A stretch of DNA of 64,000 bases from Escherichia coli (lineage in GTDB: Bacteria > Pseudomonadota > Gammaproteobacteria > Enterobacterales > Enterobacteriaceae), in NCBI RefSeq assembly GCF_048403405.1, contig NZ_CP183129.1. One strand, written 5' to 3'. Under the pieces are notes generated by a model. That model saw only the letters and a program-made list of their open reading frames with translations, had not been told where the DNA came from and ran no database searches. The translations under genes were made by a program, and so were the position numbers. Below, in pieces: positions 43,036 to 62,982 of this stretch. Every line of letters starts with the position of its first letter. Position 1 is the first letter of the stretch.

Positions 43036-44069
43036 ACGAAACTCCCGCACTGGCACCCGATGGTCAGCCGTACCGACTGTTAACTTTGCGTAACAACGCA
43101 GGGATGGTAGTCACGCTGATGGACTGGGGTGCGACTTTACTTTCAGCCCGTATTCCGCTTTCCGATGGCAGCGTCCGCGAGGCGCTGCTCGGCTGTGCCA
43201 GCCCGGAATGCTATCAGGATCAGGCCGCGTTTCTGGGGGCCTCTATTGGTCGTTATGCCAACCGTATCGCCAATAGCCGTTATACCTTTGACGGTGAAAC
43301 CGTGACGCTTTCGCCAAGTCAGGGCGTTAACCAGCTGCACGGCGGCCCGGAAGGGTTCGACAAACGTCGCTGGCAGATTGTGAACCAGAACGATCGTCAG
43401 GTACTGTTTGCCCTGAGTTCAGATGATGGCGATCAGGGCTTCCCGGGTAATCTCGGTGCGACGGTGCAATATCGTCTGACCGACGATAACCGTATCTCCA
43501 TTACTTATCGCGCCACAGTTGATAAACCTTGCCCGGTGAATATGACTAATCACGTCTATTTCAATCTTGACGGCGAGCAGTCTGACGTGCGCAATCACAA
43601 GTTGCAGATTCTGGCGGACGAATATCTGCCGGTTGATGAAGGCGGCATTCCGCTCGACGGCCTGAAATCTGTCGCCGGAACGTCTTTTGATTTCCGCAGC
43701 GCCAAAATCATCGCCAGTGAGTTTCTTGCCGACGACGATCAGCGCAAAGTGAAAGGTTACGATCACGCATTCTTGTTACAGGCCAAAGGCGATGGCAAGA
43801 AAGTGGCGGCGCATGTCTGGTCAGCAGATGAAAAATTGCAGCTGAAGGTCTACACCACCGCTCCGGCTCTGCAATTCTACTCCGGCAACTTCCTCGGCGG
43901 CACACCGTCGCGGGGAACCGAACCTTACGCCGACTGGCATGGACTGGCTCTGGAAAGCGAATTTCTGCCGGACAGCCCGAACCACCCTGAATGGCCGCAA
44001 CCAGACTGCTTCCTGCGTCCTGGCGAAGAGTATTCCAGCCTGACGGAATATCAGTTTATTGCTCAGTAA
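43029..44069 (+). CDS. galM: Aldose 1-epimerase (galactose mutarotase)
   Basis: 346 aa; overlaps galK end. Confidence 0.95.
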
Positions 44070-44074
44070 TGTTA

Positions 44075-44098
44075 AGCCCTCGTCATGAGGGCTTTATC
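44075..44098 (+). terminator. Terminator-like hairpin after galM
   Basis: AAGCCCTC-GTCAT-GAGGGCTT stem immediately after the galM stop. Confidence 0.5.
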
Positions 44099-44225
44099 CT
44101 CATATTGTTCAAATCACCAGCAAACACCGACATATTTGCAACTCAATATTCACAACAACCTTACACTGCGACACTATTTTCGCTATGGTTATGCGTAAGC
44201 ATTGCTGTTGCTTCGTCACGGCAAT

Positions 44226-44246
44226 ATAATGAGAATTATTATCATT
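44226..44246 (+). promoter_or_regulatory. Fur-box-like sequence upstream of gpmA
   Basis: ATAATGAGAATTATTATCATT resembles the Fur consensus GATAATGATAATCATTATC. Confidence 0.4.
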
Positions 44247-44271
44247 AAAAGATGATTTGAGGAGTAAGTAT

Positions 44272-45024
44272 ATGGCTGTAACTAAGCTGGTTCTGGTTCG
44301 TCATGGCGAAAGTCAGTGGAACAAAGAAAACCGTTTCACCGGTTGGTACGACGTGGATCTGTCTGAGAAAGGCGTAAGCGAAGCAAAAGCAGCAGGTAAG
44401 CTGCTGAAAGAGGAAGGTTACAGCTTTGACTTTGCTTACACCTCTGTGCTGAAACGCGCTATTCATACCCTGTGGAATGTGCTGGACGAACTGGATCAGG
44501 CATGGCTGCCCGTTGAGAAATCCTGGAAACTGAACGAACGTCACTACGGTGCGTTGCAGGGTCTGAACAAAGCGGAAACTGCTGAAAAGTATGGCGACGA
44601 GCAGGTGAAACAGTGGCGTCGTGGTTTTGCAGTGACTCCGCCGGAACTGACTAAAGATGATGAGCGTTATCCGGGTCACGATCCACGTTACGCGAAGCTG
44701 AGCGAGAAAGAACTGCCACTGACGGAAAGCCTGGCGCTGACCATTGACCGCGTGATCCCTTACTGGAATGAAACTATTCTACCGCGTATGAAGAGCGGTG
44801 AGCGCGTAATCATCGCTGCACACGGTAACTCGTTACGTGCGCTGGTGAAATATCTTGATAACATGAGCGAAGAAGAGATTCTTGAGCTGAATATCCCGAC
44901 CGGCGTGCCGCTGGTTTATGAGTTTGACGAGAACTTCAAACCGCTGAAACGCTATTATCTGGGTAATGCTGACGAGATCGCGGCGAAAGCAGCAGCCGTT
45001 GCGAACCAGGGTAAAGCGAAGTAA
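44272..45024 (+). CDS. gpmA: 2,3-bisphosphoglycerate-dependent phosphoglycerate mutase
   Basis: Start at [17 protein letters not shown] (44272), 250 aa; RHG catalytic motif. Confidence 0.96.
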
Positions 45025-45105
45025 ACGTCATTCGTTTAAAAATGAGAAAGTCGACTGCAAGTGAGTCGGCTTTTTTGTTTGTCGTTGCTAACAATGGAGC
45101 ACATT

Positions 45106-45180
45106 GCCTGATGCGACGCTGCGCGTCTTGTCAGGGCTACGGTGATTCATCGGATACGCCACTCTGACGGCGCATCCGAC
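45106..45180. repeat. REP elements (BIME-like pair) between gpmA and aroG
   Basis: GCCTGATGCGACGCTGCGCGTCTTGTCAGGGCTAC followed by a second palindromic unit. Confidence 0.6.
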
Positions 45181-45189
45181 AATTAAATC

Positions 45190-46242
45190 TTACCCGCGAC
45201 GCGCTTTTACTGCATTCGCCAGTTGACGTAATAGAGCATCGGTATCTTCCCAGCCGATGCAGGCATCAGTGATGCTCTTACCGTAGGCCAGCGGCTCCCC
45301 GCTCTCGAGGCTCTGATTGCCTTCCACCAAATGGCTTTCCACCATCACGCCAATAATGGCCTTTTCGCCACCGGCAATCTGCTGGCAAACGTCAGCACAA
45401 ACATCCATCTGCTTTTTGAATTGTTTTGACGAGTTAGCATGGCTGAAATCGATCATCACCTGTGCTGGCAGGCCTGATTTGTTCAGCCCTTCTTTCACTT
45501 CAGCAACGTGCTTCGCGCTGTAGTTAGGCTCTTTACCACCGCGCAGAATGATATGGCAATCGCCGTTACCGCTGGTATTCACAATCGCCGAATGCCCCCA
45601 TTTCGTTACGGACAGGAAGCAGTGCGGCGCACCGGCGGCATTAATGGCATCGATAGCCACTTTAATCGTACCGTCGGTGCCATTTTTGAAGCCGACCGGA
45701 CAAGAAAGACCAGACGCCAGTTCGCGGTGCACCTGCGATTCCGTAGTACGTGCGCCAATTGCGCCCCAGCTCATCAGGTCAGCGAGATATTGTGGGGTGA
45801 TCATATCGAGGAATTCACCCGCCGCTGGCAGACCGCTGTCGTTAATATCAAGCAGCAATTTACGGGCGATTCGCAAACCGTCGTTGATCTGGAAGCTGTT
45901 ATCCATATGTGGATCGTTAATCAGCCCTTTCCAGCCCACCGTGGTACGCGGCTTTTCAAAATAGACGCGCATCACGATTTCCAGCTCATCTTGCAGCTCT
46001 TCACGCAGCGCCAGCAAGCGAGTGGCATACTCTTTAGCCGCGACAGGATCATGAATTGAGCACGGGCCAATCACCACCAACAGGCGATCATCATTGCCTT
46101 TCAGGATCTTATGGATCGCTTTTCGGGCATGGGCAACCGTATTCGCGGCATTTTCAGTAGCGGGGAATTTTTCCAGCAATGCGACAGGAGGAAGTAACTC
46201 TTTGATTTCTTTGATGCGTAAATCGTCGTTCTGATAATTCAT
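45190..46242 (-). CDS. aroG: Phe-sensitive DAHP synthase
   Basis: 350-aa ORF. Confidence 0.96.
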   Translation of the reverse strand: MNYQNDDLRIKEIKELLPPVALLEKFPATENAANTVAHARKAIHKILKGNDDRLLVVIGPCSIHDPVAAKEYATRLLALREELQDELEIVMRVYFEKPRTTVGWKGLINDPHMDNSFQINDGLRIARKLLLDINDSGLPAAGEFLDMITPQYLADLMSWGAIGARTTESQVHRELASGLSCPVGFKNGTDGTIKVAIDAINAAGAPHCFLSVTKWGHSAIVNTSGNGDCHIILRGGKEPNYSAKHVAEVKEGLNKSGLPAQVMIDFSHANSSKQFKKQMDVCADVCQQIAGGEKAIIGVMVESHLVEGNQSLESGEPLAYGKSITDACIGWEDTDALLRQLANAVKARRG

Positions 46243-46557
46243 GTCTGTTCCAGTGTTGCCATACTTATCTTAGTGAATGCAATACTTCCAATCTATATCT
46301 TCCGTCAGAATGTGTAAACGGGGTTTTACACTATGAACGGATTAATCCTGGAATTAGCAAGAAAAACGCCAGATTGTCGCGAAAAACGAGATCTCTCCTA
46401 CAATTTCTAACTGTAACTCCTTTGTTTGTTAATTATTTCAAGATTCTCTGCTGCGTTTCATAACCTGGCTGAAATCTTAAACCAATGCCTTATATTCACC
46501 TGCAAATGCACTGTTGGAAGAGGTTATCCGACATAACGACCATAACAGGAGCATCCT

Positions 46558-46938
46558 ATGAAAATGACAAAACTGGCCACACTATTTCTGACTGCCACTC
46601 TAAGCCTTGCCAGCGGTTCCGCACTGGCTGCCGATAGCGGAGCGCAAACTAATAACGGCCAGGCAAACGCCGCAGCTGATGCGGGCCAGGTAGCCCCTGA
46701 CGCCCGTGAAAATGTCGCGCCAAATAACGTCGACAATAACGGGGTAAATACCGGTTCTGGCGGCACAATGCTGCATTCGGATGGTTCTTCAATGAACAAT
46801 GACGGCATGACCAAAGATGAAGAGCACAAGAACACCATGTGCAAAGATGGTCGCTGCCCGGATATCAATAAAAAAGTCCAAACCGGTGATGGCATCAACA
46901 ATGATGTCGATACCAAAACCGACGGTACCACGCAGTAA
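46558..46938 (+). CDS. ybgS: Secreted uncharacterised protein YbgS
   Basis: 126 aa with signal peptide [24 protein letters not shown]. Confidence 0.85.
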
Positions 46939-46959
46939 CCCTGCGAAATAGCCAATAAT

Positions 46960-46991
46960 GGGAGAGCGGAGTCTCTCCCTTTTAATTTTTC
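46960..46991 (+). terminator. Rho-independent terminator after ybgS
   Basis: GGGAGAG-CGGAGT-CTCTCCC followed by TTTTAATTTTT. Confidence 0.6.
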
Positions 46992-47051
46992 CCTTCTAAA
47001 AGCAGTATGATGTCATAAAGTTAAGTGAGAATAATTAAGGGATGACTCGTC

Positions 47052-47993
47052 ATGGCGCACTCACACTCACACACTTCCTCACACCTGCCAGAAGATAATA
47101 ATGCTCGTCGCTTGTTGTATGCTTTCGGCGTGACTGCCGGGTTTATGCTCGTAGAAGTCATTGGTGGTTTTCTTTCCGGTTCTCTGGCATTGCTGGCCGA
47201 TGCGGGTCATATGTTGACCGATACTGCCGCCCTGCTTTTCGCCCTACTCGCAGTGCAATTTTCCCGTCGTCCTCCCACCATTCGCCACACTTTCGGTTGG
47301 CTAAGATTGACCACGCTCGCGGCGTTTGTGAATGCCATCGCCCTGGTGGTGATTACTATTTTGATTGTCTGGGAGGCGATAGAACGCTTCCGCACTCCGC
47401 GTCCGGTCGAGGGCGGCATGATGATGGCAATTGCCGTGGCTGGGCTGCTGGCAAATATACTTTCTTTCTGGTTACTTCATCACGGCAGCGAAGAGAAAAA
47501 CCTCAACGTGCGAGCAGCGGCACTGCATGTGCTCGGGGACCTGCTGGGTTCGGTTGGGGCTATTATTGCCGCGTTGATTATTATCTGGACCGGCTGGACA
47601 CCTGCTGACCCCATTCTCTCAATACTGGTGTCGCTTCTGGTTCTGCGTAGCGCGTGGCGACTGTTGAAAGATAGCGTGAATGAATTACTTGAAGGTGCAC
47701 CGGTATCGCTGGATATCGCCGAACTGAAGCGTCGTATGTGCCGGGAAATCCCGGAAGTCCGCAATGTGCACCATGTACATGTATGGATGGTAGGCGAGAA
47801 GCCGGTGATGACGCTGCATGTGCAGGTGATCCCGCCACACGATCACGATGCCTTGTTAGATCAGATCCAACACTACCTGATGGATCACTATCAGATTGAA
47901 CACGCCACTATTCAGATGGAATATCAACCTTGTCATGGGCCAGACTGCCACCTGAATGAAGGGGTGTCTGGCCATTCACATCATCACCATTAA
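47052..47993 (+). CDS. zitB: Zinc transporter ZitB (cation diffusion facilitator)
   Basis: 313 aa; His-rich N- and C-termini. Confidence 0.94.
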
Positions 47994-48709
47994 TGGGACA
48001 GCGCGCGTGAACCTCTTTCGCGTGCGCTGTTGATCCACATCCGGCTGCCGTTGAGGGCAATAAAGGTCAGGATGATGTACTCCAGAGACATGGCGTAAAC
48101 GCCCTGAAGTGCAAAAATAACGACGCTAATCACGTTAATAATCACCCACAACAGCCAGTTTTCCACATACTTACGCGTCATCAGAATCATTGCCACGATA
48201 GATAACACCATCATGCAGGAATCCCAGAACGGGAAAGCGTCCGGCTGTAGTTCAGGCATCGCAACCTGTAATCCTAATGCTTGCATGATCATGACTGCCA
48301 CGCGGGTCAAAAATGCAAACACCGGATTGATAAATACCGTCATCAGACCAATCGAAACAACGCAAACCGCCAACCAGCTTAGCGCCTTCGGCAATGGCAA
48401 CCAGCGAATTTTCAACTCCGCCTCGTTCTGACTGGTTTGTCGCGACCACGCATACCAGCCGTAAATATTCGCGGCAAAGAAAAACACCTGTAATAGCAGG
48501 CTGGCATACAGCTGAATCTGAAAGAAAATAATGCCAAACAATGTGACGTTGATCAGGCCAAAGAAGTAGTTGCTGATCTTCTCCAGACTGGCAAGGCCAA
48601 TACACAGCAACCCGGCGATCGTGCCTACCGCTTCGATCCATGAGAGATCATAACCGCCTGCTCCTATTGGTATATGTACCAGGATATTCTGCACACTAAA
48701 AAAATCCAT
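47990..48709 (-). CDS. pnuC: Nicotinamide riboside transporter PnuC
   Basis: 239-aa membrane ORF downstream of nadA. Confidence 0.93.
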
Positions 48710-48746
48710 CTTTCCCCCAAAGCGTAACGTTACGCCTTATTATTCG

Positions 48747-49790
48747 TTATCCACGTAGTGTAGCCGCAAAATCCAGCATACGATTGAGCGGCACCAGCGC
48801 CCTCTCTCGCAGCCTTTCCTCAACATGAACCTCGTGATTGCTTCCTTCCTGTTCTAATGCCTCTGCGATGGCCTGAAGGCCATTCATGGCCATCCACGGA
48901 CAATGCGCGCAGCTGCGGCAGGTTGCACCCTCACCAGCGGTTGGTGCTTCCAGTAACTCTTTATCTGGCACCGCCTGCTGCATTTTGTAGAAAATACCCC
49001 GATCGGTTGCCACAATAAGCCTCTGATGTGGCAATGTTTTCGCAGCAGCGATCAGTTGACTGGTGGAACCGACCGCATCCGCCATCTCTACAATAGCTTG
49101 TGGTGATTCTGGATGCACCAGTATGGCAGCATCCGGGTATTCTTCTTGCAAGCGGGTTAACGCCTGAGTCTTAAATTCATCATGCACAATGCAGGCACCC
49201 TGCCAGCATAAAATGTCTGCGCCCGTCTGTTTTTGCACGTAACGCCCCAGATGTTTGTCGGGTGCCCAGATGATTTTTTCACCCAAACTATCCAGATGAT
49301 CAATAAGTTCGACGGCAATGCTTGAAGTTACCACCCAATCTGCCCGCGCTTTTACCGCAGCAGAAGTGTTGGCGTAGACGACGACAGTATGATCGGGATG
49401 GGCATCGCAAAATGCGTTAAATTCTTCAACAGGGCAGCCGAGATCCAGTGAACATTCAGCCTGAAGTGTCGGCATCAGAATTGTTTTTTCCGGACTGAGA
49501 ATTTTGGCGGTTTCTCCCATAAATCTCACCCCAGCGACTAACAACGTAGAAGCGGGATGCTTTGCACCGAAGCGCGCCATTTCCAGAGAATCAGAAATAC
49601 AGCCACCGGTTTCTTCTGCCAGTTGTTGAATTTCGGGATCGGTATAGTAATGGGCAACCATCACCGCATTACGTTCTTTTAGCAGACGTTTTATCTTCTC
49701 GCGGTAATACGCTTTTTCATCAATGCTTAACGGCGTCGGCTTCGGGGGGAAAGGATAAATCGCCGTGTCTGGATCAAACATCACGCTCAT
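48747..49790 (-). CDS. nadA: Quinolinate synthase A
   Basis: ORF 48747-49808; start at [14 protein letters not shown] (49790), 347 aa. Confidence 0.95.
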
Positions 49791-49862
49791 CTTACCATCT
49801 CGTTTCACAGGCTTAACGTTAAAACCGACTTAAGCGTGATATTCGCTATTATCGGCGTAATT

Positions 49863-49880
49863 TGTTTTATATGCTAAACA
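49863..49880 (-). promoter_or_regulatory. NadR box upstream of nadA
   Basis: TGTTTTATATGCTAAACA palindrome fits TGTTTA-N6-TAAACA. Confidence 0.6.
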
Positions 49881-50036
49881 AGATAGTCGAATGGTGGGGA
49901 AAAGTCACTCGAATTACGTATGAGATGACGAATGCCACACTTTGCGTCTTATTCCTCCGACGTAGAGTTGTTTACGCAGCAAGCGCGGAGTATGTCATCA
50001 GGGTTAAGCATTGAAATTGAGAGATGCCTGAATAGC

Positions 50037-50066
50037 AAAAAAGCGCCTTTAGGGCGCTTTTTTACA
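50037..50066 (-). terminator. Rho-independent terminator at the 3' end of the tRNA operon (bidirectional-looking)
   Basis: AAAAAAGCGCC-TTT-AGGGCGCTTTTTT. Confidence 0.7.
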
Positions 50067-50083
50067 TTGGTGGGTCGTGCAGG
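50067..50083 (-). pseudogene. 17-nt 3'-terminal fragment of tRNA-Lys (TCCTGCACGACCCACCA) abutting the terminator
   Basis: Exact match to the 3' end of the intact tRNA-Lys copies; 5' part replaced by unrelated sequence. Confidence 0.6.
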
Positions 50084-50165
50084 ATGACTCGCTTCGCTCG
50101 CCCTACGGGCCGTTGCTGGCGCAACGTTATCCTTCACGCTTAACATCTGAGTTTGATGTTAAAAT

Positions 50166-50241
50166 TGGTGGGTCGTGCAGGATTCGAACCTGCGACCAAT
50201 TGATTAAAAGTCAACTGCTCTACCAACTGAGCTAACGACCC
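50166..50241 (-). tRNA. tRNA-Lys (anticodon UUU)
   Basis: Minus-strand 76-nt sequence GGGTCGTTAGCTCAGTTGGTAGAGCAGTTGACTTTTAATCAATTGGTCGCAGGTTCGAATCCTGCACGACCCACCA; fifth gene in transcription order. Confidence 0.95.
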
Positions 50242-50244
50242 GAG

Positions 50245-50320
50245 TGGTGGGTGATGACGGGATCGAACCGCCGACCCCCTCCTTGTAAGGGAGGTGCTCT
50301 CCCAGCTGAGCTAATCACCC
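50245..50320 (-). tRNA. tRNA-Val (anticodon UAC)
   Basis: Minus-strand GGGTGATTAGCTCAGCTGGGAGAGCACCTCCCTTACAAGGAGGGGGTCGGCGGTTCGATCCCGTCATCACCCACCA. Confidence 0.95.
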
Positions 50321-50371
50321 GATACTGCGCTGGATACTACAAACTACTTCCACCGAACCCACCGTAATTAG

Positions 50372-50447
50372 TGGTGGGTCGTGCAGGATTCGAACCTGCG
50401 ACCAATTGATTAAAAGTCAACTGCTCTACCAACTGAGCTAACGACCC
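50372..50447 (-). tRNA. tRNA-Lys (anticodon UUU)
   Basis: Identical to the other tRNA-Lys copies. Confidence 0.95.
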
Positions 50448-50449
50448 GG

Positions 50450-50525
50450 TGGTGGGTGATGACGGGATCGAACCGCCGACCCCCTCCTTGTAAGGGAGGT
50501 GCTCTCCCAGCTGAGCTAATCACCC
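50450..50525 (-). tRNA. tRNA-Val (anticodon UAC)
   Basis: Identical to the other tRNA-Val copy. Confidence 0.95.
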
Positions 50526-50560
50526 GATACTACGCTGGATACTACAACTAACTAGGTTAG

Positions 50561-50636
50561 TGGTGGGTCGTGCAGGATTCGAACCTGCGACCAATTGATT
50601 AAAAGTCAACTGCTCTACCAACTGAGCTAACGACCC
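50561..50636 (-). tRNA. tRNA-Lys (anticodon UUU); first gene of the array
   Basis: Identical to the other tRNA-Lys copies; promoter expected at about 50640-50750. Confidence 0.95.
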
Positions 50637-50800
50637 ACTTTTTCGTTGCTTTCGGTTTGTTTGATATCCCGTGGCAACGGCGGCATATATTACTGATTTC
50701 AGACTTGAGTGCAACAAAAATTTCGATGTAGATCACTCAACTGCTTATGATTCGCACGACACGACCAGAAATAATGCGACTTCTGGTCGTGTGTTATGCA

Positions 50801-51592
50801 TTACATCGCGTTCAGACGTTTTTGTGCCTGTTTAGCGCCATCAGTACCAGGGTATTTACTGATAACCTGCTGGTATACGGCTTTCGCTTTTGCGGTGTCA
50901 CCTTTGTCCTGCATGATGACACCGACTTTAAACATCGCATCTGCAGCCTTTGGCGACTTCGGATAGTTTTTTACTACCGAAGCAAAATAGTACGCCGCAT
51001 CATCTTTTTTACCCTTGTTGTAGTTTAACTGACCCAGCCAATAATTGGCGTTTGGCAGGTAAGTTGAATCAGGGTAATTTTTGATGAAATTCTGAAATGC
51101 CACCATTGCGTCATCCTGGCGGGATTTATCCTGCACCAGCGCAATTGCTGCATTGTAATCCGTGTTTGCATCGCCGCTTTTCACCGGCGCGCCAGCATTC
51201 GCAGTACCAGCATCAGCTGTCGGCGTCGTTGATGCCGCCGCACCGCTTTGATCACCGCTGGTTGATTGCGCCGCTGCACCACCGCTGCTGAGGCTATCGA
51301 TCTGCAACAGGATCTGCTTTTGCCGCTCCACGACCTGATTCAGTTGATACTGATTTTCCTGAATCTGACCACGCAGGGAATCAATATCGGATTGATTATC
51401 AGAGAGTTGTTGCTGGAGTTGGGTTAAAAGCTGGCTGTGAGCATTTGAAATACGCTCAAGTTGAGTGACGCGGTCTTCGACCGAGCCTGAGCCGACACTA
51501 CTGATTGGTGCCTGAGCAAAAGCGGCCCAGGGGGCCGCTATACCAACCAGTAACGACAGACTCAATAGTTGATGTCTGAAGTTACTGCTCAT
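50801..51592 (-). CDS. cpoB: Cell division coordinator CpoB (YbgF), TPR protein
   Basis: 263 aa with signal peptide, coiled-coil and C-terminal TPR region. Confidence 0.94.
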   Translation of the reverse strand: MSSNFRHQLLSLSLLVGIAAPWAAFAQAPISSVGSGSVEDRVTQLERISNAHSQLLTQLQQQLSDNQSDIDSLRGQIQENQYQLNQVVERQKQILLQIDSLSSGGAAAQSTSGDQSGAAASTTPTADAGTANAGAPVKSGDANTDYNAAIALVQDKSRQDDAMVAFQNFIKNYPDSTYLPNANYWLGQLNYNKGKKDDAAYYFASVVKNYPKSPKAADAMFKVGVIMQDKGDTAKAKAVYQQVISKYPGTDGAKQAQKRLNAM

Positions 51593-51601
51593 GCAATTCT
51601 C

Positions 51602-52147
<546 letters not shown>

Positions 52148-52157
52148 TTAATTATTA

Positions 52158-53450
52158 TCACAGATACGGCGACCAGGCAGGGAATTTGACCTGTCCATCA
52201 GTTGCCGGAAGACGCGCTTTGAAACGCCCATCTGTAGAAACCAAATTCAGCACGGATCCCATCCCCTGAGAAGAGCTGTAGATTACCATAGTGCCGTTAG
52301 GTGCCAGACTTGGCGTTTCATCCAGGAACGTGGACGACAGAACTTGTACGCCTCCCGTTGCCAGATCTTGTTTGGCAATGTGCTGCTGCCCACCATTGGA
52401 GCTGACCATTACCATAAATTTACCGTCGCTGCTGACATCCGCATCCTGGTTCTGCGAACCTTCCCAGGTAATACGTTGTGGCGCACCGCCGTTGATATTC
52501 ACTTTATAAACCTGTGGACGACCGGCCTGGTCAGAAGTAAATGCCAGGTTCTGGCTGTCCGGGAACCAGGTCGGTTCGGTATTGTTACTGCGACCATCCG
52601 TCACCTGGCGGATCTGACCAGAAGCCAAATCCATTACGTACAGGTTCAGACTACCGGTTTTCGACAAGGCGAATGCCAGTTTGCTGCCGTCTGGCGAGAA
52701 TGCAGGTGCACCGTTGTGACGCGGGAATGAAGCCACCTGACGTACAGCGCCATTTGCCAGCGTTTGGATGACCAGCGCGGAACGACCGCTTTCGAAGGTC
52801 ACATAAGCCAGTTTAGAACCGTCTGGTGACCACGCCGGAGACATCAGCGGCTGCGGTGAACGGTGAACGACAAACTGGTTGTAACCGTCATAGTCAGATA
52901 CGCGCAGTTCATACGGGAACTGACCGCCGTTGGTCTGAACAACGTAGGCAATACGGGTACGGAACGCACCTTTAATGCCGGTCAGTTTTTCAAACACTTC
53001 ATCACTGGCGGTATGACCAGCATAACGCAGCCACTGCTTGTTCACTTTGTACGAGTTCTGAGCAAGTACAGTACCCGGTGCGCCGCCAGTGTCAACAAGT
53101 TGATAAGCAACATTGTAAGAACCATCCGGATTCGGAGTGACCTGACCGACAACTACAGCGTCAATGCCCAGTGCGGACCATGCAGCTGGTTGTACTTCCT
53201 GCGCACTACCCGGCTGCTGTGGCAGACGAGCGCGATCTAACGGATTAAATTTACCGCTGTTACGCAAGTCAGCAGCAACGATGCCGCCAATATCTTCAGG
53301 TGCCGCACCAGGACCCGCCCACTGGAAAGGAACAACACCAATAGGACGACCGGAATCTACACCGCTGTCGATCACAATGCGGACTTCAGCATGCAGAACT
53401 GATGCCCACAGTATGAGAAAACCAAATGCTACTCGTAATGCCTGCTTCAT
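52158..53450 (-). CDS. tolB: Tol-Pal system periplasmic protein TolB
   Basis: 430 aa; signal peptide and beta-propeller. Confidence 0.96.
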
Positions 53451-53582
53451 CATATCTCCCTTATCTGGACCGATGGCCCACGATAATTTAGCAGAATGTT
53501 AACAAACTAAAATACACAAAACTACCAGAACCCCGTGGCAACCGGTGCCTGATGTTGACCGTCGGAACAGTCAACATCGCGA

Positions 53583-54848
53583 TTACGGTTTGAAGTCCAA
53601 TGGCGCGTTTTTGAACACTTCATATACTGCCTGGCTTGGTGGTTTCGGGATCTTCGCAAGTTTAGCTGCTGCCAACGCAGCCTGACAAAGTGCGGGATCG
53701 CCACCTTCAGGTTTGATATCCAGTAACATACCATCGGGTGCCAGTTTTATGCGCAGCGTACAGGTTTTGCCTGCATAGGACGATGCGTCATAGAACTTAC
53801 TTTCGATAGCAGATTTAATCTGCCCGGCATAGTTATTGATATCGGCCCCTGATGCGCCATTGTTTTTAGTATTACCACTCCCGGCTGGCGAAGCATTGTT
53901 CCCTTTCGCCCCTCCCCCCGTTTTCGGTGCATTCTTACCAGAGCTTAGCTCACCGAAAATATCATCTGCCTCTGCGGCAGCTTTTGCTGCAGCGGCTTTT
54001 TCAGCTGCTGCTTTTGCAGCTGCCGCTTTTTTGTCTGCGGCGGCTTTTTCTGCCGCTGCTTTCTTATCAGCTGCTGCCTTTTCAGCAGCCGCTTTTTCTG
54101 CTGCTTTTTTGTCGGCTGCAGCTTTCTCTGCTGCCGCTTTCTTATCAGCTGCAGCCTTTTCAGCAGCCGCTTTCTTCTCAGCTTCTGCTTTGGCTTTTTC
54201 AGCAGCTTCAGTTGCCGCTTTCTTTCTTGCTTCAGCTGCAGCTGCTTCTGCCGCTTCCGCTTTCTTCTTCAGTGCCGCCGCGGCTGCCTCGACTTTTTTC
54301 TGCGCTTCGGCTGCGGCTTTGGCGGCTTCTGCTTCTGCTTTTTTCTTCGCGTCTGCAGCCGCTTTCTTCGCAGCTTCTTCCGCAGCTTTAGCATCCGCTT
54401 CGGCCTTCGCTTTAGCATCTGCCGCCGCTTTCGCTGCCGCTTCTTCCGCTTGCTTCTGCTTTAACTCGGCCTGTTTTGCGGCTTCTTCAGCCTGCTTTTT
54501 CTGTTCCTGAGCAGCTAACCGCTCTTTCTCAAGTTGCTTCAGGCGTTCCTGTTCAGCCGCTTGTTTCTCACGCAGTTCTTCAGCAGCCTGCTGTTCCTTC
54601 ATCTTGCGCTGCTCATCAGAACGCTTCGCGCTTGATTCCTGGCTTTGCATGCGTTTGTACTGCTCAACTACCGCACCTGAATCAACCATGACAGCGTCGA
54701 TGGATGAACCACCGCCGCCTCCGGCTGAAGCTTCTATATTCTCATCGAACGAACTCCAGATCAGCGCCGCAAATAAGATGACATGCAGCACTGCTGAAAT
54801 AATTATCGCCCGCTTGAGCTTGTCGTTTTGTTCGGTTGCCTTTGACAC
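53583..54848 (-). CDS. tolA: Tol-Pal system protein TolA
   Basis: 421 aa; N-terminal TM anchor, long Ala/Lys/Glu-rich repetitive helical domain II, C-terminal domain III. Confidence 0.95.
   Translation of the reverse strand: MSKATEQNDKLKRAIIISAVLHVILFAALIWSSFDENIEASAGGGGGSSIDAVMVDSGAVVEQYKRMQSQESSAKRSDEQRKMKEQQAAEELREKQAAEQERLKQLEKERLAAQEQKKQAEEAAKQAELKQKQAEEAAAKAAADAKAKAEADAKAAEEAAKKAAADAKKKAEAEAAKAAAEAQKKVEAAAAALKKKAEAAEAAAAEARKKAATEAAEKAKAEAEKKAAAEKAAADKKAAAEKAAADKKAAEKAAAEKAAADKKAAAEKAAADKKAAAAKAAAEKAAAAKAAAEADDIFGELSSGKNAPKTGGGAKGNNASPAGSGNTKNNGASGADINNYAGQIKSAIESKFYDASSYAGKTCTLRIKLAPDGMLLDIKPEGGDPALCQAALAAAKLAKIPKPPSQAVYEVFKNAPLDFKP
54055..54173 (-). repeat. Imperfect tandem DNA repeats (about 78-bp period) encoding the TolA Ala/Lys-rich domain
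   Basis: Near-identical copies of GCTTTCTTATCAGCTGC.GCCTTTTCAGCAGCCGCTTT at 54055-54094 and 54131-54173. Confidence 0.7.
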
Positions 54849-54912
54849 TCTCGGTTTCCAAAAACTGTTCGCCTGTTACCCGCTCTCTTTCAAGCAAGGG
54901 AAACGCAGATGT

Positions 54913-55341
54913 TTAGATAGGCTGCGTCATTAAACCAACCGATTTCACACCCGCACTATGTAACAAGTTCAGTGCTTTAATTATTTCATCGTAAGGCACA
55001 TCTTTTGCGCCACCGATCAGAAAGACCGTTTTCGGGTTGGCCTTGAAACGGCTGGACACTTCCGCCACCACCTGCTCTGGTGGCAAACGCTCCAGGCGAT
55101 CTTTCTCAACCACCACGGTGTACTGACCAATACCAGACACTTCAACAATCACTGGCGGATTATCGTTACTGCTAACCGCCTGTGATTCAGTAGCGTCTGG
55201 CAGATCGACCTCCACGCTCTGGGTGATGATGGGCGCTGTCGCCATAAAGATCAGCAACAGCACCAGCAGTACGTCCAGCAACGGTACAATGTTGATTTCG
55301 GACTTGAGATCGCGACGACCTCGTCCACGCGCTCTGGCCAT
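54913..55341 (-). CDS. tolR: Tol-Pal system protein TolR
   Basis: 142-aa ORF. Confidence 0.95.
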   Translation of the reverse strand: MARARGRGRRDLKSEINIVPLLDVLLVLLLIFMATAPIITQSVEVDLPDATESQAVSSNDNPPVIVEVSGIGQYTVVVEKDRLERLPPEQVVAEVSSRFKANPKTVFLIGGAKDVPYDEIIKALNLLHSAGVKSVGLMTQPI

Positions 55342-55344
55342 GGC

Positions 55345-56438
<1,094 letters not shown>

Positions 56439-56587
56439 TTTACATCCCGGTAATGCAACAAAAGTTAGAGCTTTTAAACGCTGCTACTATACGCGCGCGA
56501 TTGAGGTTTGGGAATGAGGGCAAGTTAAGGGAGCGTAAAAATTTATGGGCCTGGAGCGGCCCATAATTTTTTAAAGAGAATTCTGAT

Positions 56588-56881
56588 TTAAAAGAAGAAG
56601 AAAATCAGCCCGACAATGAGAACAATATCAGCAAGCAATGGGCAAAAAATCCCTTGCCAAAGAACCGTCTGCGGACGAAAGCCCACGCCGTGAATCACAC
56701 CAGCACAGACGGCCCACATCAGCAATAAACCATGCCAGATTTCCAGTTCACTGGTCTTCGCGGCGAAACGTGATGGGTCCCAAAACATACATCCGGCTAA
56801 CAGAAGCGCCATCACGAAGGAAAGCGCCCGCAGGGGGCGCTTGTCCATTACCGCATACAAGGTTGCGATAATCTTACTCAT
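56588..56881 (-). CDS. ybgE: Small inner membrane protein YbgE (cyd operon)
   Basis: 97-aa hydrophobic ORF downstream of cydX. Confidence 0.88.
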   Translation of the reverse strand: MSKIIATLYAVMDKRPLRALSFVMALLLAGCMFWDPSRFAAKTSELEIWHGLLLMWAVCAGVIHGVGFRPQTVLWQGIFCPLLADIVLIVGLIFFFF

Positions 56882-56994
56882 CAGATGTCTTCTTGACCGG
56901 CTTTGCCTGATTCGACGTGCTCAAGCGCCAGCGCGGTGATTACCCCAAACGAACAGGCAAGAAGCGTTCCCAGAATCCATGCGAAATACCACAT
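56881..56994 (-). CDS. cydX: Cytochrome bd-I accessory small subunit CydX (37 aa); below ORF-track cutoff
   Basis: Reverse translation gives MWYFAWILGTLLACSFGVITALALEHVESGKAGQEDI*. Confidence 0.85.
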   Translation of the reverse strand: MWYFAWILGTLLACSFGVITALALEHVESGKAGQEDI

Positions 56995-57008
56995 TTTTAG
57001 CTCCTTAC

Positions 57009-58148
57009 TTAGTACAGAGAGTGGGTGTTACGTTCAATATCTTCTTTGGTGATACGACCGAACATTTTCCAGTAACACCAGGCGGTGTAGAGCAGAATGA
57101 TCGGTACCAGAACCACCGCAACCCAGGTCATGACGTTAAGCGTCAGCTGGCTGGAAGTTGCATCCCACATTGTCAGACTTGCGTTCATCATGGTGCTGGA
57201 CGGCATCACAAACGGGAACATTGCGATACCGGCTGTCAGGATGATGCAGGCCAGCGTCAGGGAGGAGAACACAAACGCCCACGCGGCTTTATCCATACGT
57301 GCAGTCAGGATGGTCAGCAGCGGCAGAACCACACCCAGTGCCGGAATAGCCCACAGAATTGGCGTGTTGTTGAAGTTAACCAGCCATGCGCCAGCTTCAC
57401 GAACCACTTCTTTATTCAGTGGGTTAGAGGCTGCGTAATGGTCCATTGTCGATTTCACGACATAACCATCGATACCGTACATCACCCATACGCCAGCCAG
57501 TGCGAAACAGACCAGTGTCACCAGTGCCGCCACCTGAGCCGTTGCACGGGTACGCAGGTGCAGTTCGCCCACGGTACGCATTTGCAGATAGGTTGCGCCC
57601 TGAGTAATGATCATCCCTACGCTCACCACGCCTGCCAGCAGGCCGAACGGGTTAAGCAGCTGGAAGAAGTTACCGGTGTAGTACAGACGCAGATATTCAT
57701 CAACGTTGAACGGTACGCCCTGCAACAGGTTACCGAACGCTACACCAATCACCAGCGGCGGAACGAAGCTACCAATGAAGATGCCCCAGTCCCACATGTT
57801 ACGCCAGCGGGTTTCTTCAATCTTGGAGCGGTAGTCAAAACCGACCGGACGGAAGAACAAAGACGCCAGCACGAGGATCATCGCCACATAGAATCCGGAG
57901 AACGCAGCGGCATAGACCATCGGCCAGGCAGCAAACAGAGCGCCGCCCGCGGTGATAAGCCAAACCTGGTTACCGTCCCAGTGTGGTGCGATGGAGTTAA
58001 TCATAATTCGACGCTCGGTGTCGTTACGACCGAGGAAACGGGTGAGCATGCCCACCCCCATGTCGAAACCGTCAGTGACTGCAAAACCAATCAGCAGAAC
58101 GCCAACCAGCAGCCACCAGATAAAACGCAATACTTCATAATCGATCAT
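57009..58148 (-). CDS. cydB: Cytochrome bd-I ubiquinol oxidase subunit II
   Basis: 379-aa polytopic ORF. Confidence 0.96.
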   Translation of the reverse strand: MIDYEVLRFIWWLLVGVLLIGFAVTDGFDMGVGMLTRFLGRNDTERRIMINSIAPHWDGNQVWLITAGGALFAAWPMVYAAAFSGFYVAMILVLASLFFRPVGFDYRSKIEETRWRNMWDWGIFIGSFVPPLVIGVAFGNLLQGVPFNVDEYLRLYYTGNFFQLLNPFGLLAGVVSVGMIITQGATYLQMRTVGELHLRTRATAQVAALVTLVCFALAGVWVMYGIDGYVVKSTMDHYAASNPLNKEVVREAGAWLVNFNNTPILWAIPALGVVLPLLTILTARMDKAAWAFVFSSLTLACIILTAGIAMFPFVMPSSTMMNASLTMWDATSSQLTLNVMTWVAVVLVPIILLYTAWCYWKMFGRITKEDIERNTHSLY

Positions 58149-58163
58149 TTGACGACTCCTGTC

Positions 58164-59732
58164 TTAGCGTGCCGGCTGAGTAGTCGTGGAAGACTGCTCA
58201 AAGTGATAGCGACCGGTTTTCAGGCTGCTTGGGCCGAGGCGTGCAAACTTGAACATTAAGAACAATTCTGCCACCAGGAACAGGGTATACAGGCCGCAAA
58301 TCAGCACCATTGAGAAGATGAGATCGCCTGCGGTCAGTGACGAGTTCGCCACAGCTGTCGGCAGCACTTCACCGATAGCCCACGGTTGGCGGCCATATTC
58401 AGCCACGAACCAGCCCGCTTCTACAGCAATCCACGGCAGCGGAATACCATACAGCGCGGCGCGCAGCAGCCATTTTTTCTCGCCAATGCGGTTGCGGATG
58501 ACACTCCAGAAAGAGAGCGCGATGATTGCCAGCAGCAGGAAGCCACACGCCACCATGATACGGAACGCGAAGTACAGCGGCGCTACACGCGGAATGGAGT
58601 CTTTGGTTGCCTGTTGAATCTGCGCTTCAGTCGCATCAGCCACGTTTGGCGTATAGCGTTTCAGCAGCAGACCGTAACCGAGGTCTTTCTTCATGCTATT
58701 GAACTGGTCACGAACCGCCTGGTCGGTAGAACCAGAACGCAGTTGTTCGAGCAGAGAGTACGCCTTCATCCCGTTACGAATGCGTTCTTCATGCTGCACC
58801 ATCAGTTCTTTCAGGCCGATAACTGGAGTATCCACGGAACGCGTTGCAATGATGCCCAGCGCGTAAGGGATCTGGATCGCAAATTTGTTCGTCTCCTCTT
58901 CCTGATCAGGAATGCCGAACAGAGTAAAGGCAGCAGGCGCAGGTTGCGTTTCCCACTCGGCTTCAATAGCAGCCAGTTTGGTTTTCTGCACGTCGCCCAT
59001 TTCGTAACCAGATTCATCACCCAGAACAATAACAGACAGAACGGCAGCCATACCGAAGCTGGCAGCGATAGCAAAGGAGCGTTTAGCGAAGGCGAAGTCA
59101 CGACCTTTCAGCATATACCATGCGCTGATACCGAGGATGAACATCGCGCCAGTCACATAACCAGACGCTACAGTGTGAACGAATTTCACCTGAGCAACCG
59201 GGTTAAGCACCAGCTCGGAGAAGCTCACCATCTCCATACGCATAGTTTCAAAGTTGAAATCGGACGCGATTGGGTTTTGCATCCAGCCGTTCGCAACCAG
59301 AATCCACAGTGCGGACAGGTTTGAACCGAGCGCCACCAGCCAGGTGACACACATATGCTGAACTTTACCCAGACGATCCCAACCGAAGAAGAACAGACCT
59401 ACAAAGGTGGATTCGAGGAAGAAGGCCATCAGACCTTCGATTGCCAGCGGCGCACCGAAGATATCCCCTACATAGTGGGAATAGTAAGACCAGTTAGTCC
59501 CGAACTGGAACTCCATAGTCAGACCGGTAGCCACACCCAGAGCGAAGTTGATACCAAACAACTTGCCCCAGAACTTGGTCATATCTTTATAAATCTGTTT
59601 GCCGGAAAGGACGTAGACCGTTTCCATAATGGCCAGCAGGAACGCCATACCGAGCGTCAGTGGCACAAAAAGGAAGTGGTACATCGCGGTCAAGGCAAAC
59701 TGTAAGCGCGACAGTTCGACTATATCTAACAT
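58164..59732 (-). CDS. cydA: Cytochrome bd-I ubiquinol oxidase subunit I
   Basis: ORF 58164-59735; start at [12 protein letters not shown] (59732), 522 aa. Confidence 0.96.
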
Positions 59733-60017
59733 CATGACTCCTTGCTCATCGCATGAAGACTCCGAGAGTGAACCCCGTTAGAAAGGGTCACACGCATGCC
59801 CCAATACAAAATTATTTGCTCGCCTCTATCGTTGCCATTTCATCAAAAGAGGAAAAGACAATGATAAAAAAGTTACAAATATGTTAATGAATAAACCAAA
59901 TTGATCCCGTAATTATATTACGCCGCAAAATCCTTACAATAAACAGGTTTTTATTGAGCAAATTTGCATTTTTCGACAGTGATCAATTTATAGCGAAATT
60001 GTCACGATCTCACCAAT

Positions 60018-60031
60018 TTGATCTACGACAA
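60018..60031 (-). promoter_or_regulatory. FNR/CRP-family half-consensus box (TTGATCTACGACAA) in the cydAB control region
   Basis: Matches the TTGAT half of TTGAT-N4-ATCAA; about 285 bp upstream of cydA. Confidence 0.4.
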
Positions 60032-60069
60032 TTTATCGTGTTTTGCAGATTTTTTTCAAGAATTAAAAA

Positions 60070-60083
60070 TTGATTTATATCAA
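60070..60083 (-). promoter_or_regulatory. Perfect FNR consensus box TTGATTTATATCAA in the cydAB control region
   Basis: Exact TTGAT-N4-ATCAA; cydAB is known to be FNR/ArcA controlled with a long leader. Confidence 0.6.
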
Positions 60084-60537
60084 AACCAACCAAATATGTT
60101 AATTATGTATAAACCATAGATCATTGGTGATTTTATTGTTAATTTATTGTGAAATATTTATGCAACACAATTATTACAATGAAAAGGTATAGATAAAAAA
60201 CCAGTGTTTTATTTAACAGAACCGCCTTATCCACTTTTTATAATACCAATTGATTAGATTAGCCAATTTGTTGCTATTTTACATAACATATTTTTATCAA
60301 AGTTAATTGATTGTTGCGTTTATGAGCACCGGCCGTAAGCCCGTTATGTTATTGTTTCATTAGTAATAATCACTTAAATGTATCGATGAAACAGGTATGA
60401 CTTAGCGGGAGTGATTGTTTCTGAGTGAACAGAGACCACTTTCGCCTGATAAATGAAAAATGAGCGATTTTTGCAAGTTAGTTTTTCTATAGCCGAGTAC
60501 GCTCAGCGCCTCGCTTGATTACAATGAGGTTGCTGCT

Positions 60538-61482
60538 ATGAGTCCTGATAATATCAGTTCTGCTGTCAATCGCTTCTCAGGTTGGCCATCTAATGATCCT
60601 CTAAAAACAGATAAAGAATCAATGACATCACCCATGACTGTGCAGGTAATAAAGATGATTGCCGCCATCCTTGACCCACATCGGATAGTCGTTGGAATCG
60701 ATACACTTTATACAACGCAGCGCGAAACATTTACCTCAGAGAGTCAACAGCTCATTGAATCAGCATTGCAAACACTTCATGTGATGAATTTAAATAACCT
60801 GGAAACAAATCTCGATGAGGAAGGTCACTATCTGGCTTTTGGATATAACGTTGACACTCCTGACAGAATAACCGTTTCTGCTTATAATGAAAAAAAGCCT
60901 GGCTGCTATGGCCAATGTCTTTTAATACAGGATGACGAAACAGACTTATTTAACCTGATAAAAGTTAAAATTTTTGAAGCCAGGCATAATTATGTCGCTC
61001 AATTGATGAGCGATCCGGAATTTATGTTCAAATTTAGTTATAGCGCTCAACAAAATAGATTAGAACCTCATCTTCTGGTTCCCACTTATTTCCCTCTAAA
61101 AACAAACGAACCGGTTACGCAAGAGGATGTACTGTTACTTTATCGTTTCTTTAAAATGGATGGTGATTTTAATATATTAACATCAGATGAATACATGAGT
61201 ATCATGACACCTCTGATGAAGTGTGAGCGCAGCATCCACGACCACAACAGGTATGTGACGGGCAAAGATACCCTTCTTCTGGACTATCCTCCTTCTGGTA
61301 ACCAGATATATTTCCATATTTTTCCTGACGAATCAGCAACACTAGTCCTTTATTTTTCAAACAATGACATTGAATGTTTCGTCTTTGAAAGAGATATTCC
61401 GAGCCAGTATCGCTTTTTCAAAATGTTTACCAATCTGGCACTGGTTATTGATCAGTTAACCGATGCCAATCAAATACTTTAA
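60538..61482 (+). CDS. Hypothetical protein, 314 aa, no family recognised (AT-rich islet ORF-A)
   Basis: Intact ORF with GAGG 8 nt upstream of ATG; Ser/Thr/Pro-rich N-terminus without signal peptide; codon usage AT-skewed. Confidence 0.6.
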   Translation: MSPDNISSAVNRFSGWPSNDPLKTDKESMTSPMTVQVIKMIAAILDPHRIVVGIDTLYTTQRETFTSESQQLIESALQTLHVMNLNNLETNLDEEGHYLAFGYNVDTPDRITVSAYNEKKPGCYGQCLLIQDDETDLFNLIKVKIFEARHNYVAQLMSDPEFMFKFSYSAQQNRLEPHLLVPTYFPLKTNEPVTQEDVLLLYRFFKMDGDFNILTSDEYMSIMTPLMKCERSIHDHNRYVTGKDTLLLDYPPSGNQIYFHIFPDESATLVLYFSNNDIECFVFERDIPSQYRFFKMFTNLALVIDQLTDANQIL

Positions 61483-61562
61483 TTTTTATATATTCCCTGT
61501 GGCAAATATTGCTAAACAATGCCCGGGGATTAATTTTTATTACTCACGGAAAGATTTAAATA

Positions 61563-61985
61563 ATGATCCCATCTCAAATCTCTTTCAACACCCTTCCTGT
61601 CAATGCAACATACGCTTCAGAGACAACAGTTGACACACAAAAATTCTCTGACATCCTCTACTCAGCGGGGTGTTCCCTAAAGGATCTGGCTTATTTGAGC
61701 AGATGTCTGGCATCAATACATCCGACTATCGCCAAAAACATTTATGAAACAGAAAATCTCAGCGATCAAAAATTACTACATATTGATTGCCGTAGTACAA
61801 ATGAAATCAAGATAAATATCTTTTTTGGTCAACAACGAGAAGGATTAATTGAAATTAGTTCTGACACAGTCATTTTTTCGATACTGTCTTCATTGATTGA
61901 CTCCACCATTTCTAAATTTCAACACCAAAACCCCGTTAACGGTTCTGTAAATCCTGACCTATTGTATGAGGATTATACTGATTAA
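61563..61985 (+). CDS. Hypothetical small acidic protein, 140 aa, no family recognised (AT-rich islet ORF-B)
   Basis: Intact ORF 80 bp downstream of ORF-A, same strand; about 17 acidic versus 9 basic residues; Ser/Thr-rich N-terminus. Confidence 0.55.
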   Translation: MIPSQISFNTLPVNATYASETTVDTQKFSDILYSAGCSLKDLAYLSRCLASIHPTIAKNIYETENLSDQKLLHIDCRSTNEIKINIFFGQQREGLIEISSDTVIFSILSSLIDSTISKFQHQNPVNGSVNPDLLYEDYTD

Positions 61986-62532
61986 ATCCCTCCTGTCGCG
62001 AAAAATGGCCTGCGTTATTGCCAGACGTAATAAAACTTTTGATTAACGTTTCTCGTACTGGTAGCACCTTCATGTACTTTTCTTTTTTACGAAAAATCAA
62101 AAGAGCTAACAAAGGTCATAATTCGCATGAATCATTAATTATTTGTTATTTTCAACATTATTTTTACATTAAGCAGAGATGAATTGCAGTGAAATTCGAC
62201 TTAACTTTTATGAAATGCATTTACTCATGGCTAAAGCCACGTCACAAAAATGCAAATTAGAAGTAGATCACAAATATCTCAATACATCAAATCAAGTTAA
62301 TTTTAAAAATTTAATATTCATGACATTAGTTGACATAACACACTGAATTATAATGAGAATTTGAAAACACACTTTAAACAATCATTTCCCGAAAGACATT
62401 TTGAAAATAGATCAATTGCAACATTACGGTCAGATAAAGACACTCCTGTGATATTAAACCTGTGCCGTTATGAACGGCCATAAATACGACGTGTGTAACT
62501 TATTTTACTCTCTGTCTTACAAAGGATTACCC

Positions 62533-62982
62533 ATGAAGAAAGCAACACTTGTGATTGGCGTTATTGGCGCGGACTGCCATGCAGTAGGCAATAAAGTTCT
62601 GGACCGCGTTTTTAGCAACCATGGCTTCAGAGTCATTAATCTGGGCGTAATGGTCAGCCAGGACGAATATATTGATGCTGCCATTGAAACTGGTGCTGAC
62701 GCGATTGTCGTCTCCTCTATCTATGGGCATGGCGATATCGATTGTCTGGGCATGCGCGAACGCTGCATTGAGCGTGGGCTGGGTAACATCCTGCTCTATG
62801 TGGGCGGTAACCTGGTGGTCGGAAAACATGACTTCGCTGACGTGGAAACCAAGTTCAAAGAGATGGGATTTGATCGCGTCTTTGCCCCAAGTCATGACTT
62901 AGAAGATGTTTGTCAGCTGATGGCCCACGATATCAACCAACGTCATGACGTTGATACTCGCATTCTTGAAGAGGCAATCTGA
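62533..62982 (+). CDS. glmS: Glutamate mutase sigma (S) subunit / methylaspartate mutase S chain, B12-binding
   Basis: ORF 62470-62982; start at [21 protein letters not shown] (62533) with AAGGA upstream; DxHxxG cobalamin-binding motif (DCHAVG); strongly resembles clostridial MutS/GlmS. Symbol refers to glutamate mutase, not glucosamine-6-phosphate synthase. Confidence 0.85.

Follow-up and report, generated by a model that had tools for sequence, protein, structure and literature searches.

Close to the terminator of a small tRNA array in this Escherichia coli sequence lies a 17-nt exact copy of the tRNA-Lys 3' end that belongs to none of the intact genes, and the array itself counts five tRNA genes where K-12 carries seven. 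Whether such a copy is the scar of a lost gene, the trace of a former integration or a regular part of the operon, and whether the low gene number is a property of the organism itself, are the questions raised by this locus. The first-pass annotation of the window (the whole 64-kb stretch of DNA that was analysed) had joined the two observations, proposing that recombination between the repeated genes changed their number and left the 3' fragment behind, and had mentioned an old integration site as another origin of such duplications.

The tRNA array in its operon

The tRNA genes called by ARAGORN across the 64-kb window are five, all on the minus strand between 50166 and 50636, and the matches of the Rfam tRNA model agree with them (Table 1). 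The three Lys genes are identical to one another and so are the two Val genes (exact 76-nt string matches), which bears out the alternation of identical genes initially described. The flanking genes are cpoB and nadA, and the locus is therefore the lysT tRNA operon of E. coli, with core genes to either side of it (cpoB, pal and tolB; nadA, pnuC and zitB). The window and its clone-mates, i.e., the near-identical genomes described below, have the genes from galM to tolB in the same order; the window sequence contains no N and is otherwise contiguous over its 64 kb. Five of the six tRNA-Lys genes of K-12 belong to this operon, which taken as a whole is essential (PMC11480407).

Table 1. Positions of the lysT operon features and flanking genes within the window.
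Feature	Position	Strand	Evidence
tRNA-Lys(UUU), lysT position	50561-50636	-	ARAGORN; Rfam tRNA 79.2 bits
tRNA-Val(UAC), valT position	50450-50525	-	ARAGORN; Rfam tRNA 65.9 bits
tRNA-Lys(UUU), lysW position	50372-50447	-	ARAGORN; Rfam tRNA
tRNA-Val(UAC), valZ position	50245-50320	-	ARAGORN; Rfam tRNA
tRNA-Lys(UUU), lysY position, last intact gene of the array	50166-50241	-	ARAGORN; Rfam tRNA
RtT-family spacer unit, 98 nt	50068-50165	-	Rfam RF00391; folding; K-12 comparison
17-nt copy of the tRNA-Lys 3' end, TCCTGCACGACCCACCA	50068-50084	-	exact match
48-bp repeat ACGGCCCGTAGGGCGAGCGAAGCGAGTCATCCTGCACGACCCACCAAT, sole remaining copy, deletion/collapse junction	50066-50113	-	alignment; string comparison
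Rho-independent terminator hairpin of the operon	50037-50063	-	fold
Putative lysT promoter	50687-50714	-	TTGCAC, 16-nt spacer, TAATAT, GC-rich discriminator GCCGCC
cpoB (ybgF), upstream flank	50801-51592	-	ORF list; annotation of identical clone-mates
nadA, downstream flank	48747-49790	-	ORF list; clone-mate annotation; exact-protein look-up

The operon runs from its putative promoter through Lys-Val-Lys-Val-Lys to one spacer unit of the RtT family and the terminator. The promoter is a candidate based on its hexamers and on a position kept in K-12 and O157; its putative -35 hexamer, at 50709-50714 (-), reads TTGCAC in the clone to which the window belongs and TTGCGC in K-12 and O157:H7. A consensus promoter and terminator scan of the window reported neither the lysT promoter nor the operon terminator, the latter escaping a simple scan because an A/T extension of its stem absorbs the T-run. 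In the fold, the extra 17-mer is followed on its 3' side by AUGU and then by the hairpin AAAAAAGCGCC-CUAAA-GGCGCUUUUUU. The terminators of the lysT and valU operons are reported to have identical sequences, and that of the valU operon to be cut off by RNase P 3 nt after CCA (PMC4176162); the lysT terminator is presumably removed in the same way. In the window allele the context CCA-AUG-UAAAAAAGCGCC comes after the tail of the RtT unit and not after a tRNA, and this tail standing in place of a tRNA ahead of the RNase P context of the terminator is a small curiosity.

A spacer unit of the RtT family

The sequence TCCTGCACGACCCACCA occurs four times in the window, once per Lys gene and once as the extra copy, against 0.01 occurrences expected by shuffling (none of 100 shuffles reached four), and the reported copy of the gene end is thus real. 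Its position had been given as following the last gene and adjoining the terminator; it is indeed near the terminator, four bases from the hairpin, but it does not directly follow the gene, from which an 81-nt structured spacer separates it. Spacer and copy form a 98-nt unit, in which a hairpin of variable sequence on the 5' side precedes a conserved core of three hairpins and the 17-nt tRNA-Lys end; it is identical to the K-12 unit after lysY except for the first base. Rfam family RF00391 (RtT) matches at 50068-50234 (-) with 54.4 bits against a gathering score of 45, over the full model (1-130), the 5' half of the model aligning onto the preceding real tRNA-Lys, and the match ends exactly with the 17-mer. 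The orthologous units of K-12 and of the clone-mates score 46.7-60 bits, all above the gathering score.

The unit is located within a tRNA operon, between the last tRNA-Lys gene and the terminator, its end repeats the 3' terminus of the neighbouring tRNA, CCA included, and it has a conserved secondary structure. The assignment was tested by looking for the unit in seven-gene arrays, where it is present, and by its score, which exceeds the family threshold; in every testable respect the unit is a member of the RtT family. The 17-mer is the normal 3' end of a known and conserved RtT-family spacer element, a feature already described and ordinary, and the fragment should be annotated as part of such an element and not as a scar or an attachment site.

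Folded as a single sequence the unit reaches -32.7 kcal/mol (z = -3.55), and the RNAalifold consensus of 30 distinct cores contains 21 pairs, four of them with compensatory changes. A closing helix, formed by CGUG-AGGAU with AUCCU-CACG (columns 1-10 vs. 60-69), engages the first 9 nt of the 17-mer and the preceding A with the conserved CGUGAAGGAU at the start of the core; it encloses three hairpins, and the compensatory changes fall in these inner helices. At every pair of the closing helix the 5' strand keeps its base in 28-30 of the 30 sequences, while the 3' strand was unable to vary, being fixed by the search pattern. In the consensus structure ACCCACCA is a free tRNA-like 3' tail. The unit would be transcribed together with the tRNAs and presumably freed during their processing, as described for the RtT of tyrT. 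RtT is described as an RNA released from the transcripts of tyrT and other tRNA operons, for which an effect on the stringent response has been proposed (Bosl and Kersten, 1991, cited in PMC4986893, bioRxiv 10.1101/2024.07.17.603846); the unit of the lysT operon may likewise be released as a stable RNA, and may have a part in the stringent response.

The element is widespread beyond E. coli. The motif AGTCA followed by the 17-mer was retrieved from at least 120 genomic stretches in a scan of one genome per species, the matches listed including Photorhabdus, Citrobacter, Enterobacter, Klebsiella, Pluralibacter, Pectobacterium, Dickeya, Erwinia, Edwardsiella and Salmonella arizonae, among others, and it is found behind tRNA-Lys genes across the Enterobacterales. 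There are 65 distinct short units (95-105 nt) with the common core CGUGAAGGAUAACGUUGC...GCAACGGCCCGNAGGGCGAG..GAAG..CGAGUCA followed by the 17-mer. Slot-specific 5' hairpins, i.e., types of unit, are common to several genera, and the units therefore predate E. coli. In Pasteurellaceae, RtT homologues lie beside Lys and Asn tRNA genes (PMC4986893).

A peculiar arrangement was observed in Photorhabdus caribbeanensis and P. asymbiotica, in which a tandem series of 8-9 copies of ~174 nt each comes after two intact tRNA-Lys genes (L018 5238-7344 (+); L068 8485-10255 (+)). Each copy is a tRNA-Lys gene with a conserved, structured insertion of ~64 nt in the T-loop (GGTTCGA, insert, TCCTGCACGACCCACCA), and these interrupted genes receive no ARAGORN call. 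The 5' tRNA part decays from copy to copy; the insert and the 17-nt end stay conserved. The Photorhabdus copies suggest that the RtT family may have originated from tRNA genes interrupted in the T-loop.

With the RtT of the tyrT operon (RF00391; rttR) the window unit has in common the setting in a tRNA operon and the ending in the 3' end of the upstream tRNA with CCA, in addition to the core ..ACGGCCCGNAGGGCGAG..CGAGUCAUCC; in K-12 and in the clone-mates PGAP labels the terminal unit of the lysT operon "RtT sRNA", the name that the last unit of K-12 bears in RefSeq. Unlike rttR, the window unit is of a short internal subtype (~98 nt) with a variable 5' hairpin in place of a degenerate tRNA 5' half, it carries a tRNA-Lys and not a tRNA-Tyr end and, in the window allele, it abuts the terminator. 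The tandem repeats downstream of tyrT, whose description is attributed to Egan and Landy and to Rossi et al., reportedly contain each the last ~19 bp of the tRNA-Tyr gene. Both systems consist of a spacer repeat with an exact tRNA 3' end and a repeat number that varies by recombination; they differ in the tRNA concerned and in the length of the unit, ~178 bp in the tyrT repeats and shorter in the window, where units are interspersed with functional genes.

The 389-bp gap and its explanations

Six complete genomes (TUM14771, MS 69-1, TUM1226, isolate 68, GN02461 and 4621) are clone-mates of the sequenced strain, with 0-3 differences, by bit score, over ~44 kb (window 1-25000, 44000-50000 and 50700-64000). 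All six carry seven tRNA genes at the locus. Writing K for a Lys gene, V for a Val gene, r for a spacer-closing 17-mer and T for a terminator, five of the six read K V K V K r K K T r T and the window K V K V K r T; in strain 4621, the sixth, an independent deletion has in addition taken away the unit after the third Lys gene while leaving seven genes. The alignment of the cpoB-nadA interval of the window with that of MS 69-1 shows no mismatch and a single gap of 389 bp, which in MS 69-1 is bounded by maximal perfect 48-bp direct repeats, ACGGCCCGTAGGGCGAGCGAAGCGAGTCATCCTGCACGACCCACCAAT, 389 bp apart. These repeats are the 3' halves of the internal and of the terminal RtT unit. One copy is kept in the window; the other is missing along with the intervening 341 bp, and the absent segment carries two Lys genes and the first terminator and extends into the terminal RtT unit, of which it includes the 5' part.

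The interval between cpoB and nadA measures 1010 bp in the window and 1399 bp with the 389 bp present, as compared to 1399-1499 bp at the places with readable cpoB and nadA calls found by the NadA exact-protein look-up, and is longer still than 1499 bp, by string count, at a fourth place (L143, CP050222.1); no array region among the deduplicated places of this look-up had a length equal to that of the window. Among the genomes examined no second one had exactly the array of the window, and the top-ranked matches to the junction, which were those judged, are all in two pieces; the search joins pieces up to ~580 bp apart, so that seven-gene arrays also reach 100% coverage and the absence of a twin allele is not proven.

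A single gap, direct repeats at its bounds and one retained copy are what a repeat-mediated deletion leaves, and the loss of one copy with 341 bp between perfect 48-bp repeats is of the same kind as known deletions of this type, either by RecA-independent slippage or RecA-dependent. In the explanation that we prefer, a lysT operon with its RtT unit would have undergone a very recent deletion: the parental array of the clone would have been K V K V K r K K T r T, with seven genes, two RtT units and two terminators, and replication slippage or homologous recombination between the 48-bp repeats would have taken out the two Lys genes, the first terminator and the beginning of the terminal unit, fusing the internal RtT unit to the second terminator. 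Taken as a whole, this explanation is held with moderate confidence, and a real deletion in the DNA of the organism is probable though far from certain. It would differ from the ordinary copy-number variation of tandem tRNA genes in that the repeats are supplied by RtT units and not by tRNA genes. Of the change in copy number first proposed, the reduction itself (five genes vs. seven) stands, with recombination between repeats as its most likely cause, but the breakpoints lie in the 48-bp RtT repeat and not in the tRNA genes.

A deletion between the repeats and an assembly shortcut across the 48-mer both yield exactly the sequence of the window, hence the ambiguity between the two. The strain may have seven genes, the assembler having skipped across the 48-mer or failed to tell apart the five identical 76-nt Lys genes with a loss of 389 bp, and such a collapse would agree with the seven genes of all six clone-mates in spite of almost no differences in the flanks, with gap bounds that coincide exactly with a perfect repeat and with a junction not seen in a second genome among the top-ranked matches. 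Any assembly from long or Sanger reads, or with a large k, resolves a repeat of 48 bp, however; the contig passes cleanly through five tRNA genes, and similar deletions occur in complete genomes, one clone-mate included; we consider a collapse possible, if on the unlikely side. Unequal recombination between tRNA-Lys genes, leaving a truncated 3' fragment as a scar, would account for a copy number below that of K-12 and of the clone-mates and for a fragment that copies the gene end exactly, but it is very improbable: seven-gene arrays that lack the deletion have the fragment and its 81-nt spacer at this very position, and both recur in numerous enterobacterial genera (Enterobacterales), and therefore the 17-mer was not left by a copy-number event; recombination between whole genes would moreover give intact genes and no 17-nt stub, and the breakpoints map to the RtT repeat. 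As to whether remnant and five-gene count recur in all strains, the former proved widespread and the latter did not. A truncated tRNA pseudogene from a recent deletion was likewise rejected, the same unit and 17-mer being present in the seven-gene clone-mates and in K-12. Based on these comparisons, the 17-mer is a standing component of the operon, a substrate of recombination rather than its product.

An integrative element, a phage or island once inserted in tRNA-Lys and since lost, would have left the duplication as an attL/attR remnant. The duplication does begin in the T-loop, a classic crossover position of integrases, as it does in the attB/attL/attR duplications of tyrosine integrases, and the Photorhabdus family consists of whole tRNA-Lys genes with an insertion in that loop. 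Nonetheless, this origin, which the first-pass annotation had itself qualified by the lack of an integrase nearby, is hardly credible. The ORFs of the window and the annotation of the clone-mates indeed include no integrase, neither foreign gene nor cargo is present, and gene order is kept; the 81 nt between the repeats are a structured RNA present in most strains and conserved across an order, with compensatory changes, and the same core is found behind several tRNA species (tyrT is the basis of the Rfam family; Asn and Lys in PMC4986893). No integrase-bearing element flanked by 17-mers was found in those related E. coli loci whose annotation was read. An att-site duplication was rejected also as only 81 nt lie between the copies and the neighbours are core genes.

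Variation of the array and its surroundings

Written in this way, the K-12 array is K r V K r V K r K r K T r T; it therefore comprises seven genes, in agreement with the number initially given, and five spacer units of ~100 nt, each ending with the same 17-mer; O157:H7 reads K V K V K r K T. In strains without a unit, the tRNA joins directly to what elsewhere follows the 17-mer, so that exactly the stretch from the gene's 3' end to its copy has been lost. Losses of single units or genes in other strains are equally precise, at repeats of 17-19 nt or 76 nt, and it is nothing out of the ordinary for tandem tRNA genes to vary in copy number by way of direct repeats. Array size in complete E. coli genomes ranges from five to at least eight genes: GW-AmxH19 (K V K V K T) and 72322051416_S37 (K V K K K) have five, O157:H7 and AH20K059 have six and 2012C-4221 has eight. 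Extra genes were observed in L143 (K r V .. V K V .. V K r K K T), and the eight-gene array of another locus, L141, has three consecutive terminal Lys genes.

The E. coli collection searched includes 5426 genomes, of which 5424-5425 matched per search. Repeats inside the locus, and the divergence of a segment upstream of nadA, obscured the result of a whole-locus megablast, and a flank-only query was used instead; the distance between the identical flank anchors was 652-1435 bp in 59 genomes sampled evenly along the ranking, and it is 750 bp in the window. The region upstream of nadA (window 49810-50036) occurs as two very divergent haplotypes, the window being only 86% identical to K-12 over 260 nt, in comparison with 98.6-99.2% for the genes on either side, and megablast matches therefore end right after the 17-mer.

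The window and its clone-mates present three alleles of the array (seven genes, seven genes without the internal RtT unit, and five genes) with almost no SNPs in ~44 kb, which points to a very high rate of structural mutation or to a high rate of assembly error. A real deletion would have cost the locus two of its five tRNA-Lys(UUU) genes, lowered the Lys gene dosage from six to four and fused an RtT unit to the terminator, and the locus would then illustrate conveniently, in nature, how repeats drive changes in tRNA gene dosage. The five-gene count is unsuitable as a strain marker before verification on the reads, and beyond correct annotation the significance of the locus is small. A broader joint reading, by which RtT units derive from tRNA copies with a T-loop insertion (~64 nt, intact in Photorhabdus), their tRNA-identical ends render tRNA-Lys arrays structurally hypermutable, and the RNase P cut that removes the terminator must here use the RtT end, appears doubtful to us.

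Two minor features were observed next to the array. An ORF of 65 aa at 49949-50146 (-), starting inside the RtT unit (AUGUUAAGCGUGAAGG...) and running through the terminator, resembles the small tpr ORF of the tyrT repeats and is probably spurious. On the other side, the CpoB/ybgF RNA thermometer (Rfam RF02782) scored 142-154 bits in the pal-cpoB intergenic region of every related locus scanned (e.g., L002 3200-3338); the scan covered these related loci, and the corresponding region of the window is ~51560-51700.
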